A stretch of 64,000 bases of DNA from a virus (IMGVR_UViG_3300021425_003554); one strand, 5' to 3'. Numbered from the stretch's first letter, positions 34,403-39,124 are shown. Notes: a model not told the origin generated them from the sequence alone. Numbers and translations: made by a program.

Positions 34403-34921
34403 TTATTTTTTGATCCACTCGGCGTATAATCTATTACCACTGTCTTCCAAAATTTCTTTCAGTGTAAAGTTATACTTGTCGCACCATTCTACATTTTTAT
34501 CAATCGACCACGGATAAAATCTCACAGATTCAACCCCTTTCCATGGGTGATCTCCCGTGCCTGGATTCTGTCTCCAGTATATTCTATCACCGGTATTGGT
34601 TATTCTTGATAACTTGGCTATTTGAAATTCCACTTCTTGTTCTGTTCCAAAATTTAAACTTCCGAGAGCAAAATATACGTTAAACTTTTTATGTGGCTCA
34701 TAATCTTCCCAACTTATAACCTCATCTGCATTGTCGTTGGCAGGATCTATACCATATAATCTATCACCTAATTTTTCTTTGAATAAATTATAACCACAAC
34801 CTATATCTAATATCTGATCAGTTTTATTAATTTTATCCAATAACGCCCATCCTGAATATTTAAATTTTGAATAATTGGGTTTCCAATTATCACGAAAATA
34901 ACTTGTTTCCATTTCGTTCAT
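34403..34921 (-). CDS. class I SAM-dependent methyltransferase
   Basis: ILDIGCG motif I, YGIDP motif II. Confidence 0.8.
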   Translation of the reverse strand: MNEMETSYFRDNWKPNYSKFKYSGWALLDKINKTDQILDIGCGYNLFKEKLGDRLYGIDPANDNADEVISWEDYEPHKKFNVYFALGSLNFGTEQEVEFQIAKLSRITNTGDRIYWRQNPGTGDHPWKGVESVRFYPWSIDKNVEWCDKYNFTLKEILEDSGNRLYAEWIKK

Positions 34922-35568
34922 ATCCTTTTTTTAATTTCCTTCTGTAAAAGATTATTTGTTTTGTCACTTTTTACACCCGTGATGACCAACATGGGTCTTG
35001 GCTTGTTGCTGGCGTTTGCTGTGGCGTGTGGTAAGTTTTGCCAATCGAACGTGTGTATATCACCGGATCTCCATCTGTCAAACTGCTGGTTACCATACAT
35101 CAGGAACTGACCGGGTTCCCAATCCTGCAACATCACCATTACACGTATAACATTATTTGGATCAGCATCTAAATCATATAATTTGTCTATGTGCATATTC
35201 AATACCTCACCAGTAAATTGTATGTGTAACTTAGATTTTACCGGTTCCAAACAAAAGAAATCGGTCATTCTTTGTAGCGTGGGGCATTTTGAAAAATCTT
35301 TTAAACCTCTGTATATGGTCATTTTGGGATCTGCACCTGCTTTTATTAAATCATTTTCTTCTGCTTGTACATCACCATCTGGTCTACCTGTGCCTTCCCT
35401 ACGATTGGCCCAATTCAATGGTTTGGCATCATCGATCACCGATTGTATTTCTGTTTGCCAACCGCCAGTGAATTTACCTAGATGTTGTACGCAGTCGGTA
35501 TCCCGGTGCCATTTGTTGAAGTGGTAGTTACTTCTTGTTTTCGCATCTTCCCAATTACTTGTAGACAT
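34918..35568 (-). CDS. 2OG-Fe(II) oxygenase / cupin-fold protein
   Basis: LHIQFTGEVLNMHIDK (HxD), DWEPGQF, WQNLPHATAN (distal His), RPMLVITG. Confidence 0.75.
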   Translation of the reverse strand: MSTSNWEDAKTRSNYHFNKWHRDTDCVQHLGKFTGGWQTEIQSVIDDAKPLNWANRREGTGRPDGDVQAEENDLIKAGADPKMTIYRGLKDFSKCPTLQRMTDFFCLEPVKSKLHIQFTGEVLNMHIDKLYDLDADPNNVIRVMVMLQDWEPGQFLMYGNQQFDRWRSGDIHTFDWQNLPHATANASNKPRPMLVITGVKSDKTNNLLQKEIKKRI

Positions 35569-36151
35569 ATACCTTGATATCCTTGTTCGCGTAGTTATGT
35601 GTATGTATGCTGTCCCTAGGGCCTGGTTCTTTTATTCCCAGCACCCGGCACAGGTCGAAGTTGTCCACGGGACAGGTTATCCTGTCTAGGTTTTGCTGTA
35701 TGAACTGTGCAATATCTGTGTTTTGATCCTGTATGTGCGTCCACATCCGGTCTAAGTTCTCAAAGTATTGATAGTTGGGATATGTGATCGTGAATTCTCC
35801 ACACAATTTCCACCAGTCATAACACTCTAGGTTGTTCCTTCGAACAATCACTATAGGATATCCCAACACCTTCAATTCATTAAGTTGGTGTGCGAACGTG
35901 TGCGATTTTATGATCCTCTTGCCTGTGCCTGAGAATGGCTTGTCCCAATTTTCTTTTGAATTTTCAAACTCCATGCCTGGATCCCAGTATGCTCCTGTGT
36001 GCATGAGTTGTCTGTGTCCGGGGGTGTCGGCATCGTGCCAGTAGGTTCTCTGATCAGAATAGTCTGTGTGATCTATGTCATCACTCCAGTAGATGTTCTT
36101 GACCACACTGCTCCACTTTGATCCCGGCGCCCCTGTGAACAATATGTACAT
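35555..36151 (-). CDS. sulfotransferase-fold / P-loop protein
   Basis: ILFTGAPGSKWS N-terminal loop, RIIKSH and IVIVRRN resemble the PAPS-binding motifs of sulfotransferases. Confidence 0.5.
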   Translation of the reverse strand: MYILFTGAPGSKWSSVVKNIYWSDDIDHTDYSDQRTYWHDADTPGHRQLMHTGAYWDPGMEFENSKENWDKPFSGTGKRIIKSHTFAHQLNELKVLGYPIVIVRRNNLECYDWWKLCGEFTITYPNYQYFENLDRMWTHIQDQNTDIAQFIQQNLDRITCPVDNFDLCRVLGIKEPGPRDSIHTHNYANKDIKVYVYK

Positions 36152-36153
36152 TG

Positions 36154-37230: not shown

Positions 37231-38659
37231 AATCTATCCTGTTTTTTCTTGTTATTCCGACCCATGTTATCATTATAACACAGAGTATTATAAAAATAAA
37301 GACCGGTCTTTGAAAAATTTCATCGACCGAATGTAACGATATCAATTGGTATGACAAGTTGTAAATTCTATCACTTAAAAGATAACCGATCAACAACGCC
37401 GGTCTGCTTATTTTCATATATTTACAACCTAAGCCCAAGGCAGAAAAAATTACCAAAGTGGCAAGATCTTCCCAACCGCCGGTGTACTGCATGGTTGCCC
37501 AAATAATGATTGCTATTATGAAAGGAAAATAATAGATGTATGGTAATTTTGTTATATATCCTGCGAAATAAGCCAATCCATAACAGATAAAAGCAGTGAT
37601 GATCGTTCCTGCCAGGAAGCCAAATGTCATACTATCAAATAGTTGAGTATCATAGAACGTGTCTGGTGATCCCAGATCTATTCCTATGTACAGAAATAAT
37701 CCCATCAGGATGGCGGCAAAAGGTGCTCCCGGTATGCCAAACAACACAGTGGGAATAAAGGACGAGGCCTTCTGTGCATTGTTGGCTCCCTCGGCTCCTA
37801 TCACTCCTCTCACATTTCCATTTCCAAATTTTTCGTTTGGGTTTGAAGCAACCGTGGCACCATAACTCAACCAATCTGCCATTGCTCCACCCAGTCCGGG
37901 CAGTAGTCCTATGAACGAACCTATGGCTCCTCCGCGTATGCTATCTTTCCAGCAATGTAAAGTGTCTTTTATCCCTTGTAAAATTCCTGACCAACTGCCT
38001 TTCAATGCCGCGGCATCTACTGTCTGTTTTCTTTTACGCCAACCTTCCCATAATTCTGGTATGGCAAAAAGTCCTGCCACGAACGGCAATATCTGTACTC
38101 CATCCTCAAGGTATCTCCAGCCCATTGTGAAACGTGGCACATTGTTGGCATCCACTCCCACTAGGCCTATCACGACACCTAATATTATGGCTAGTATGCT
38201 TCTGATGTAATGCTTGGTTGATAAAAAACCCACCGTGACAAAAGCCAAAACCACCAACGCCCATAATTCCGGTATTCCCATGTACATCACAATGTTGGTA
38301 TAGTAAGGCAAAAATAAAAATGTGAGAGAACCAAATATCAATCCGTTTAGGGTGCTGGATGTGATTGCGGCACTCAGGGCTCGTGATGCTTCGCCGTTTC
38401 TTGCCATGGGGAATCCATCCACCATGGTTGCGGCCGCTGAATTGGCACCGGGTATGCCCAACAGCACACCGCTGAAAGAATCACCCGTTGTCGAGGATGC
38501 CACAACTGCCACACAGAATATCACGCCCAGGTAGGGATCGGATACAAAATAAGGCATCACACCAAACAGTGCTATCAATCCTGTGGTGGCTCCCGCGGCC
38601 GGTATTATGCCAATTATCAATCCAAAAAATATTCCGGCAAATAAAAATATCAGTTCCAT
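37223..38659 (-). CDS. tctA: tripartite tricarboxylate transporter permease (TctA family)
   Basis: Multi-TM protein; LLGIPGANSAAATMVDGFPMARNGEASRAL, GLLPGLGGAMADWLSY, AEGANNA, PTVLFGIPG. Confidence 0.9.
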   Translation of the reverse strand: MELIFLFAGIFFGLIIGIIPAAGATTGLIALFGVMPYFVSDPYLGVIFCVAVVASSTTGDSFSGVLLGIPGANSAAATMVDGFPMARNGEASRALSAAITSSTLNGLIFGSLTFLFLPYYTNIVMYMGIPELWALVVLAFVTVGFLSTKHYIRSILAIILGVVIGLVGVDANNVPRFTMGWRYLEDGVQILPFVAGLFAIPELWEGWRKRKQTVDAAALKGSWSGILQGIKDTLHCWKDSIRGGAIGSFIGLLPGLGGAMADWLSYGATVASNPNEKFGNGNVRGVIGAEGANNAQKASSFIPTVLFGIPGAPFAAILMGLFLYIGIDLGSPDTFYDTQLFDSMTFGFLAGTIITAFICYGLAYFAGYITKLPYIYYFPFIIAIIIWATMQYTGGWEDLATLVIFSALGLGCKYMKISRPALLIGYLLSDRIYNLSYQLISLHSVDEIFQRPVFIFIILCVIMITWVGITRKNRIDYA

Positions 38660-38661
38660 TT

Positions 38662-39069
38662 CTATTTTTTTCTTATCATGCTTCCGTGTACTCTCACTCT
38701 GATGTGTCCGTTATAATAATCATCAGACTCCAACACCTTTCGAGCAAACTGTTCTCTGGCTTCCACGTAAGATAGTTCACCTTTGTTCTTGCAATAAAAT
38801 AATATCTCCCTGGTGAATTTATCGTTTCCTATTTTTTGTATGTCTTCCAGCAATGCATCACTGGAACCGTAATAATCTCTCCAATCGGAATCTACCTTGA
38901 ATCTTCTTTTATTTTTTCTGCCTTTTAACGGAGGTCTAGATCTTTTAAATTTTGCTAATTTTTTGCCAATATATTTCTTACCATTGGTTGTATTTGTTAT
39001 CTCGTACACAAATCCAACACAATCGTTTGGTAATTCATCGACCGGTTTTCCTTCAAACATCCACTGCAT
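38662..39069 (-). CDS. free-standing GIY-YIG endonuclease
   Basis: GFVYEITNTTNGKKYIGKK, WRDYYGSS, FTREIL..LSYVEAREQF..YYNGHI. Start taken at ATG 39069, 5 nt after a TAAATA box. Confidence 0.88.
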   Translation of the reverse strand: MQWMFEGKPVDELPNDCVGFVYEITNTTNGKKYIGKKLAKFKRSRPPLKGRKNKRRFKVDSDWRDYYGSSDALLEDIQKIGNDKFTREILFYCKNKGELSYVEAREQFARKVLESDDYYNGHIRVRVHGSMIRKK

Positions 39070-39124
39070 GATGGTATTTAAACTCAATACTGTTCACCGA
39101 ATTTTATTTGATTGTTATATAGTA

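Follow-up and report, generated by a model that had tools for sequence, protein, structure and literature searches.

Auxiliary genes of phages usually boost a pathway of the host a single step at a time, and the PstS protein of cyanophages works through an ATP-binding cassette (ABC) transporter of the host. Full-text literature searches returned no description of a phage module that joins a carboxylate-type transporter to tailoring enzymes, which agrees with the remark of an earlier first-pass annotation that no phage system of this make-up is known to have been described; the only related entry is a gene recorded as "tctA, domain hit only" in SUP05 viruses, its role being given as unknown (PMC4164917, PMC6359870). 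In the tripartite tricarboxylate transporters (TTT) the TctB subunit is poorly conserved and of unknown function, and archaeal TctA proteins are found without it (PMC5812351). Here we analyze a 64,000-nucleotide stretch of viral DNA, IMGVR_UViG_3300021425_003554 (the window), in which the minus-strand genes at 34403-38659 are best explained as an auxiliary module of five genes carried by uncultured, T4-like jumbo phages of aquatic habitats. The reading that we prefer, with roughly even confidence in it, is that the module would take up an organic anion and then, in the cytoplasm, (hydroxylate,) O-sulfate and methylate it.

According to the first-pass annotation, the module and an additional upstream gene constitute six abutting minus-strand genes that end at one terminator, and this arrangement is confirmed by the open reading frame (ORF) coordinates and a 17-bp hairpin. 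The features, with the main evidence for each in brackets, are:

38662..39087, minus strand: predicted SegE-type GIY-YIG homing endonuclease with the catalytic domain alone, probably starting at ATG 39069 (PF19835)
37223..38659, minus strand: TctA-family multi-pass permease, membrane component of a secondary importer of the TTT type (PF01970)
36154..37230, minus strand: divergent TctC/Bug-type solute-binding protein, predicted to be secreted, 358 aa (family profile, signal peptide)
35555..36151, minus strand: sulfotransferase-fold protein, cytoplasmic, putatively of the 3'-phosphoadenosine-5'-phosphosulfate (PAPS) type, with a shape like that of the tyrosylprotein sulfotransferases (TPSTs), 198 aa (structural model)
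34918..35568, minus strand: 2-oxoglutarate (2OG)/Fe(II) oxygenase of prolyl-hydroxylase-like shape, 216 aa, an optional member of the module (invariant residues, model)
34403..34921, minus strand: class I methyltransferase dependent on S-adenosylmethionine (SAM), 172 aa (motif I, PF13489 in the family)
34347..34383, bidirectional: intrinsic-terminator hairpin, 17-bp stem followed by a T run (sequence)
39075..39082, minus strand: TTTAAATA, a candidate site agreeing with the T4 late-promoter consensus at 7/8 positions (6 nt before ATG 39069)

Proceeding from the GIY-YIG gene, the first and third junctions are gaps of 2 nt each, and the second, fourth and fifth are overlaps of 8, 14 and 4 nt; the terminal hairpin also terminates the convergent plus-strand gene 34111-34317. 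All six gene labels of the first-pass annotation are backed, two of them by Pfam and four by deeper profile, fold or residue tests, and all five module genes are under purifying selection (ratio of nonsynonymous to synonymous substitution rates, dN/dS, 0.05-0.2). In four metatranscriptome libraries there are contigs that cover the cassette and span each junction between its genes, which fits expression of the cassette as a unit; such contigs give no transcript start, strand or level, and stretches that they leave uncovered carry no meaning.

Conservation of the module and exchange of its importer

A search of IMG/VR with TctA recovered at least 93 viral contigs, on which 80 TctA loci were counted, 79 of them extending past TctA. 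The binding-protein and sulfotransferase-like genes are adjacent in all 79 of the latter, and a methyltransferase of the window family is present in 76 TctA loci, either as a form about 62-69% identical located upstream of TctA or as a 35%-identical, 219-aa paralogue located downstream. The oxygenase is found in 46 of the 80 loci (about 58%). At least four gene orders are seen, with flanking genes that vary by lineage. The reverse search, using the sulfotransferase-like family, retrieved at least 581 viral contigs, and TctA was present in 36 of the 37 newly found loci with enough upstream DNA. The coherent unit that had been proposed on first inspection is thus borne out by synteny in both directions, contrary to the lack of co-conservation that the first-pass annotation had named as a refutation.

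Within the module the oxygenase occurs only together with a sulfotransferase allele bearing an HDADTPG insert (both are present in 40 loci and both absent from 33; four loci that seemed to depart from this are artefacts of ORF calling), and this pairing is seen in more than one TctA background. Such co-variation fits a hydroxylation followed by O-sulfation as a possible reaction order, although the adjacency of the two genes means that linkage adds to it. An exchange of alleles can also be glimpsed in a close relative, L078 (9430-11080, compared with window 35555-37230), in which TctA, the oxygenase and the methyltransferase are 99% identical to those of the window, the binding protein 89% and the sulfotransferase-like protein 71%; the contigs from the RNA libraries break in identity near 36149, as L078 does. 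This suggests that the 3' part of the binding-protein gene may have been exchanged along with the sulfotransferase-like gene.

The association extends to a distant T4-like phage (L082-84), in which all five families are found at 30-45% identity, duplicated and reshuffled in the order methyltransferase, oxygenase, adenosine 5'-phosphosulfate (APS) kinase, a 135-aa HxGH nucleotidyltransferase, two TctA/binding-protein pairs, a second oxygenase and three sulfotransferase-like genes. An APS-kinase-like gene together with the 135-aa HxGH (cytidylyltransferase-like) gene was observed beside the importer at L082:3704-4535 and also in L249, L272 and L278, and the HxGH protein weakly matches nicotinamide mononucleotide adenylyltransferases; the two genes may represent a minimal pair for the supply of PAPS. 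An APS-kinase-like gene also lies 17 kb from the cassette in a close relative, and in the window no APS-kinase homologue was detected by tblastn, nor any PP-loop or kinase P-loop motif. In a third lineage (L087, L089) the transporter pair is flanked by two or three Methyltransf_11 genes and a B12-binding radical SAM enzyme, and the sulfotransferase-like gene is absent from these loci. In L087 the two ORFs downstream of the binding protein encode no further binding protein and nothing sulfotransferase-like.

None of about 75 bacterial TctA loci carries the tailoring enzymes. The six closest "bacterial" TctA proteins (55-58% identity) were considered as a donor lineage and rejected, since they come from bins of five unrelated phyla and three are accompanied by the phage enzymes. 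The contigs in question (L086-L091) bear a cassette with the phage-type TctA, and their metagenome-assembled genomes are labeled Legionellales, Polynucleobacter, Omnitrophota, Ignavibacteriaceae and Weeksellaceae; given the scatter across phyla and the phage enzymes on three of them, they probably represent phage DNA placed in bacterial bins by error. In 50,697 cultured or deposited phage records, searched at the DNA and protein levels, the cassette was not found, the TctA matches being unrelated fragments; the GIY-YIG gene alone in the cassette resembles a counterpart there, in the Melnitz phages.

The single exception to the reciprocal co-occurrence, L199, bears a transporter of a different kind. 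Here the slot of TctA and the binding protein is occupied by a Na+/solute symporter (SSF; PF00474, 5.9e-18; TIGR00813, 6.7e-29) and a 213-aa P-loop-like protein, after which come the sulfotransferase-like, oxygenase and methyltransferase genes and then, as in the TTT version, a 98-aa gene and a DUF6267 gene. A search with the symporter recovered 48 viral contigs, 42 with enough downstream DNA, in which the downstream genes comprise the 213-aa protein (41), methyltransferase (36), oxygenase (17), sulfotransferase-like protein (8) and the APS kinase with the HxGH gene (3). In 41 loci the phage symporter is followed by this 213-aa protein (L242:7422-8063, for example). It has an invariant TGPQGSGNH loop, belongs to no recognizable family and could not be related to the sulfotransferase-like proteins or to a solved structure; a role as a kinase- or sulfotransferase-like partner is conceivable. 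One enzyme set is therefore served by two unrelated importer families, a pattern hard to account for unless solute uptake is part of the work of the enzymes. An importer as such would appear to be what the tailoring enzymes need, and its interchangeability favors an imported small molecule as their target.

The transporter and the tailoring enzymes

The TctA product matches PF01970 (6.7e-92) over 422 of the 423 profile positions, has several hydrophobic segments by hydropathy and shares many invariant residues with its bacterial homologues, with a dN/dS of 0.07-0.09. In phylogenetic analysis the phage proteins form one old clade (Shimodaira-Hasegawa-like approximate likelihood ratio test support of 100) on a long branch apart from 75 bacterial TctA proteins. 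The binding protein, as a single sequence, has no match in Pfam, NCBIfam or PHROG. However, an exhaustive search gathered 448 relatives, and a profile built from 50 of them matches BugE (2dvz, 3.8e-20), BugD (2f5x, 5.9e-20) and TctC (6hke, 1e-16) in the PDB, as well as terephthalate-binding proteins; 11 of the 50 relatives match PF03401. Every phage binding protein bears a Sec signal peptide with an A-x-A end directly before D-Y (in the window the predicted cleavage is AKA|DY). Bacterial relatives are found in operons of binding protein, TctA and TctB, and adjoin tricarboxylate-type catabolic genes (FAD_binding_2, PrpF, Iso_dh).

The cassette leaves no unassigned space for TctB, and the 64-kb window contains no ORF of 100-200 aa with four transmembrane segments. 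PF07331 has no match in the records of five relatives (520 kb in total), a result to be read with the poor conservation of TctB (PMC5812351), and a host TctB could be borrowed. These absences indicate that the phage system is either a two-part transporter or a borrower of a host subunit.

The AlphaFold2 (AF2) model of the sulfotransferase-like protein has a pLDDT of 90.5, and its top eight structural matches in the PDB are all sulfotransferases (Z 9.2-7.4, with 148-167 residues aligned), namely TPST1 (9.2), a tick TPST (8.8), TPST2 (8.7), the sulfotransferase domain of an olefin synthase (8.5), Stf9, 3rnl, Stf1 and NDST (7.4); P-loop kinases rank below them, at Z of 7.4 or less. A Foldseek search of the PDB with this model gave nothing at E<=0.001. 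Its neighbors in a language-model atlas are viral Sulfotransfer_1/_3 clusters. The protein has an N-terminal GAPGSKWS loop, and H84 and R105 are invariant. The loop (residues 7-14) and R105, which comes after an IVMVYRN strand, resemble the 5'-phosphosulfate- and 3'-phosphate-binding motifs of PAPS-dependent enzymes in a comparison by eye, with no sequence model matching. Neither this protein nor the oxygenase matches Pfam, NCBIfam or PHROG when taken alone, and neither family profile has a sequence relative in the PDB.

In the oxygenase H126, D128, H181 and R191 are conserved without exception in six sequences, the most distant at 27% identity, and all 50 of the best PDB matches to its model are 2OG oxygenases (Z 10.2-7.0), proline 3-hydroxylase (1e5r) being the best and prolyl hydroxylases scoring 8.5-9.3; the atlas lead is PF05118. 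The methyltransferase is recognized by its invariant motif I (DxGCG; D39-x-G41-C42-G43). PF13489 (Methyltransf_23) is matched by 19 of 19 members of its family, at best with 8.3e-07, the window protein alone reaching 0.021, under the cut-off, and matching nothing in NCBIfam, and the matches of the family profile in the PDB are weak and nearly all to class I methyltransferases.

The 5' end of the cassette and its genomic setting

The GIY-YIG protein matches PF19835 (SegE_GIY-YIG) with 2.6e-38 over profile positions 1-123 of 123, and its PHROG matches are homing-endonuclease families. It is about 135-141 aa in length and ends about 12 residues past the catalytic domain, with no recognizable C-terminal DNA-binding domain. 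The gene is present in five of the 80 TctA loci and lies just upstream of the symporter in two of the 42 symporter loci (L248, L282). This sporadic distribution and its recurrence before the alternative transporter mark it as a mobile insertion, and its inclusion in the pathway by the first-pass annotation is not upheld. Related GIY-YIG genes, 73-79% identical, were observed at L248:5510-6000, L282:3561-4010, L046:7520-8000 and L033:968-1470, in each case directly ahead of the transporter gene. They come from different lineages and stand before both transporter types, which suggests homing at the conserved 5' region of the cassette.

What this region comprises is apparent from relatives with the TTT-type importer. 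In at least 42 of them a near-invariant 31-nt hairpin, one per locus, lies about 45-50 nt before the TctA ATG, and upstream of it there is an invariant ATAATTA and, in 22 of 45 loci, TTGACT-N17-TATAGT. The same element stands ahead of the alternative symporter in L245, and in L250-252 and L255 a variant precedes the symporter in which the outer stem TGTTGT/ACAACA is replaced by TTAAC/GTTAA, still complementary; the outer stem of the hairpin thus covaries. Examples outside the window are L036:1490-1590, L003:268-368, L245:5900-6003 and L251:5900-6003; they share the core AACGCTC-N5-GAAGTT, which contains a bulged C, and lie 45-90 nt ahead of the gene for TctA or the symporter. The hairpin is a candidate cis-regulatory RNA or operator, and a search of Rfam with it gave no match. 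The element is absent from the window, where the GIY-YIG gene is found in its place; this gene apparently inserted at the module's 5' end, displacing the native promoter and hairpin.

These observations bear on the late promoter that the first-pass annotation placed ahead of the cassette. The TAAATA hexamer is indeed present on the minus strand at 39080-39075, 6 nt ahead of ATG 39069; the promoter label does not hold up as well, because the hexamer is not enriched in the window (41 observed against 67 expected, which is rarer than chance) and relatives without the GIY-YIG gene have the sigma70-like promoter and hairpin. The surrounding octamer is TTTAAATA and not TATAAATA. The window has only four perfect copies of TATAAATA, at 29997-30004 (minus), 42304-42311 (plus), 52448-52455 (plus) and 54968-54975 (minus), each directly upstream of a gene start, and these look like T4-type late promoters very near the ATG. 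Given the under-representation of the hexamer and the imperfect octamer, a late promoter at TTTAAATA is a possibility, and the sigma70-like promoter and 5' element of the relatives make the native cassette look sigma70-driven rather than late.

As regards the wider setting, structural and replication genes of T4-like type occupy the window, among them SbcCD-like gp46/47 and the genes for baseplate hub, portal and major capsid. The major capsid protein is nearest (68-72% identity) to those of the jumbo phages Sinorhizobium Phosso, Vibrio 2.275.O, Pseudomonas PA5oct and Cronobacter GAP32 (285-470 kb), and DNA near-identical to the window is found in marine, seawater, estuary and salt-marsh metagenomes and in one "freshwater" metagenome. 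The structural region also contains, at 6010-20457 on the minus strand, a single ORF of 4815 aa, followed by one of 1157 aa. At 51885-51969 (plus strand) there is a freshwater-2 RNA motif of Rfam (73.4 bits against a gathering score of 49.9), which lies downstream of the major capsid gene and ends where ORF 51967-52395 begins.

Possible function and comparison with known systems

In the pathway that we prefer, the secreted TctC-like protein would capture a small organic anion in the periplasm and pass it to the TctA permease, acting without a phage-encoded TctB. In lineages that carry the oxygenase, and only in these, the imported molecule would be hydroxylated in the cytoplasm; the sulfotransferase-fold enzyme would then O-sulfate it from PAPS, and the methyltransferase would methylate it. 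The gene identities, co-conservation, purifying selection, lack of TctB and interchangeable importer are observed here; the direction of transport, the action of the enzymes on the imported solute, the order of reactions and the use of PAPS are inferred. Hints to the substrate come only from the tricarboxylate-type catabolic genes beside the bacterial binding-protein relatives and from the resemblance of the oxygenase to hydroxylases of free proline and prolyl residues. Several points weigh against this proposal. TctB is a regular component of canonical TTT systems, and in the distant L082 phage the binding proteins are without the usual GG(T/S) loop. The sulfotransferase label is based on fold (Z of about 9) and context, without a significant sequence match, and the confidence of the oxygenase model is low (pLDDT 65). 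The best structural matches of these two enzymes are protein modifiers, namely tyrosylprotein sulfotransferases and prolyl hydroxylases, so that a macromolecular target also fits. Neighboring genes are co-inherited, and part of the co-occurrence and allele co-variation may be linkage and not function; likewise, contigs of the RNA libraries may derive from carried-over DNA.

If the target were indeed macromolecular, the enzymes could tailor a virion or host protein or a surface glycan, and the transporter would be an unrelated uptake gene in the same hypervariable island. The fold matches to TPST1/2 (Z 8.7-9.2) and prolyl hydroxylases (Z 8.5-9.3) are what such separate tasks would lead one to expect, as are the sugar-tailoring genes (UDP-glucose dehydrogenase, FkbM methyltransferase) near the cassette in relatives. 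However, a match at Z 7-10 does not identify a substrate, and the same enzymes stand behind two unrelated importer types in one slot across about 130 loci; their association with an importer outlasts at least four rearrangements, duplication and 30-45% divergence, and holds reciprocally in 36 of 37 loci, and we therefore regard independent roles as unlikely. A similarly low probability is given to a supply function, in which the importer would bring in a co-substrate or precursor, either sulfur from which PAPS and SAM are made (as sulfate, methionine or an organosulfur acid) or, for the oxygenase, 2OG or (metal-)citrate. Citrate, amino acids and sulfolactate are among the known substrates of TTT systems (PMC5812351), the APS kinase and HxGH genes lie directly beside the transporter genes in L082, L249, L272 and L278, every lineage has at least one SAM-dependent enzyme, and the catabolic genes (FAD_binding_2, PrpF, Iso_dh) by the bacterial binding-protein relatives also accord with it. 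Against this, the oxygenase is optional (46 of 80 TctA loci, 17 of 42 symporter loci), and the supply of 2OG cannot account for a core that consists of transporter, sulfotransferase-like protein and methyltransferase; the import of citrate or 2OG to feed the oxygenase, as suggested in the first-pass annotation, hence does not fit. The L087/L089 lineage has the transporter without the sulfotransferase, and sulfate supply is thus not general. Moreover, 2OG and the precursors of SAM are ordinary cytoplasmic metabolites, and the substitution of a system dependent on a solute-binding protein by a Na+/solute symporter argues for one particular organic solute.

A very improbable alternative dispenses with import altogether, such that the transporter would export or exclude, or serve as a periplasmic sensor or a device for superinfection exclusion or receptor masking, and the enzymes would modify an endogenous metabolite for release. 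The energetics of TTT systems have not been determined by experiment (PMC5812351), which leaves some room for it; yet secondary transporters that depend on binding proteins are importers in all characterized cases (TTT and tripartite ATP-independent periplasmic, or TRAP, systems; PMC5812351), and the substitute transporter belongs to the Na+/solute symporter family of uptake systems. Returning to import followed by modification, a more specific version can be formulated as a phage-run pathway in which one dissolved organic solute would be imported by a TctB-less TTT system or a Na+ symporter and then sulfated and methylated, with PAPS made by the phage in some lineages and expression governed by the conserved 5' hairpin, which could sense the solute. 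We regard this version as less likely than not; if true, it would add a novel class to viral metabolism and provide the first TTT transporter of two components.

The new elements in our analysis are the exchange of importers, the co-variation of the oxygenase with a sulfotransferase allele, the grouping of phage TctA proteins in a single clade and the displacement of the 5' element. The module looks like a self-contained line of uptake and conversion, and it is widespread in public data (TctA on at least 93 viral contigs, the sulfotransferase-like protein on at least 581 and the binding protein in 1386 protein clusters), from marine, estuarine and salt-marsh samples and RNA libraries. If infected cells import a dissolved organic compound and sulfate or methylate it, phages would alter the flow of marine organic sulfur and carbon in a manner so far unaccounted for. 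The swap of two transporter families provides a handle for identification of the substrate, and the phage system offers a natural test of the need for TctB, of unknown role, in TTT permeases (PMC5812351).

Among known systems the TTT family (TC 2.A.80; TctCBA of Salmonella, BctCBA/Bug of Bordetella, SlcHFG and TphC/TpiBA) shares with the phage module the adjacent genes for a TctA permease and a TctC/Bug protein with a signal peptide, and the carboxylate-gripping loops of the Bug structures have counterparts in the phage binding protein (PSGGTS, SGSG). In contrast to that family, the phage gene order is TctA and then the binding protein, the latter being too divergent for Pfam, the TctA proteins form a separate deep clade, no TctB gene is found in the cassette, the 64-kb window or 520 kb of relatives, and the transporter is joined to tailoring enzymes as in none of the approximately 75 bacterial loci.

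The PAPS-dependent sulfotransferases (TPSTs 5wri and 3ap3; 4gox; mycobacterial Stf0/Stf1/Stf9; Cpz8) have the same fold over about 150 residues (Z 7.4-9.2), and their binding motifs may have counterparts in the N-terminal strand-loop-helix of the phage protein, with its G-x-P-x-S-x-x-S loop, and in its conserved arginine after strand 4; unlike them, the phage protein has only 198 aa and matches no sulfotransferase family significantly by sequence, and P-loop kinases are nearly as good a match (Z up to 7.4). With 2OG/Fe(II) oxygenases of the prolyl/proline hydroxylase type, common in marine phages, the phage enzyme shares the double-stranded beta-helix core and the HxD...H iron triad with a basic residue ten positions past the distal histidine. 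It differs in having no Pfam match and in its presence being tied to one allele class of the neighboring sulfotransferase-like gene. The GIY-YIG protein resembles the free-standing Seg-type endonucleases of T4-like phages in its full SegE_GIY-YIG catalytic domain, its patchy spread and its use of the same intergenic site in different lineages, and differs from them in its length of about 135-141 aa, with no recognizable C-terminal DNA-binding domain, as predicted from sequence.

Finally, the module is like the PstS of cyanophages and the tctA of SUP05 viruses in that a lytic phage carries a host-type uptake component that is presumably produced during infection. The SUP05-virus gene was reported without partner genes or role (PMC4164917), whereas the phage described here, unlike the cyanophages with PstS, encodes a permease, its binding protein and the downstream enzymes together.

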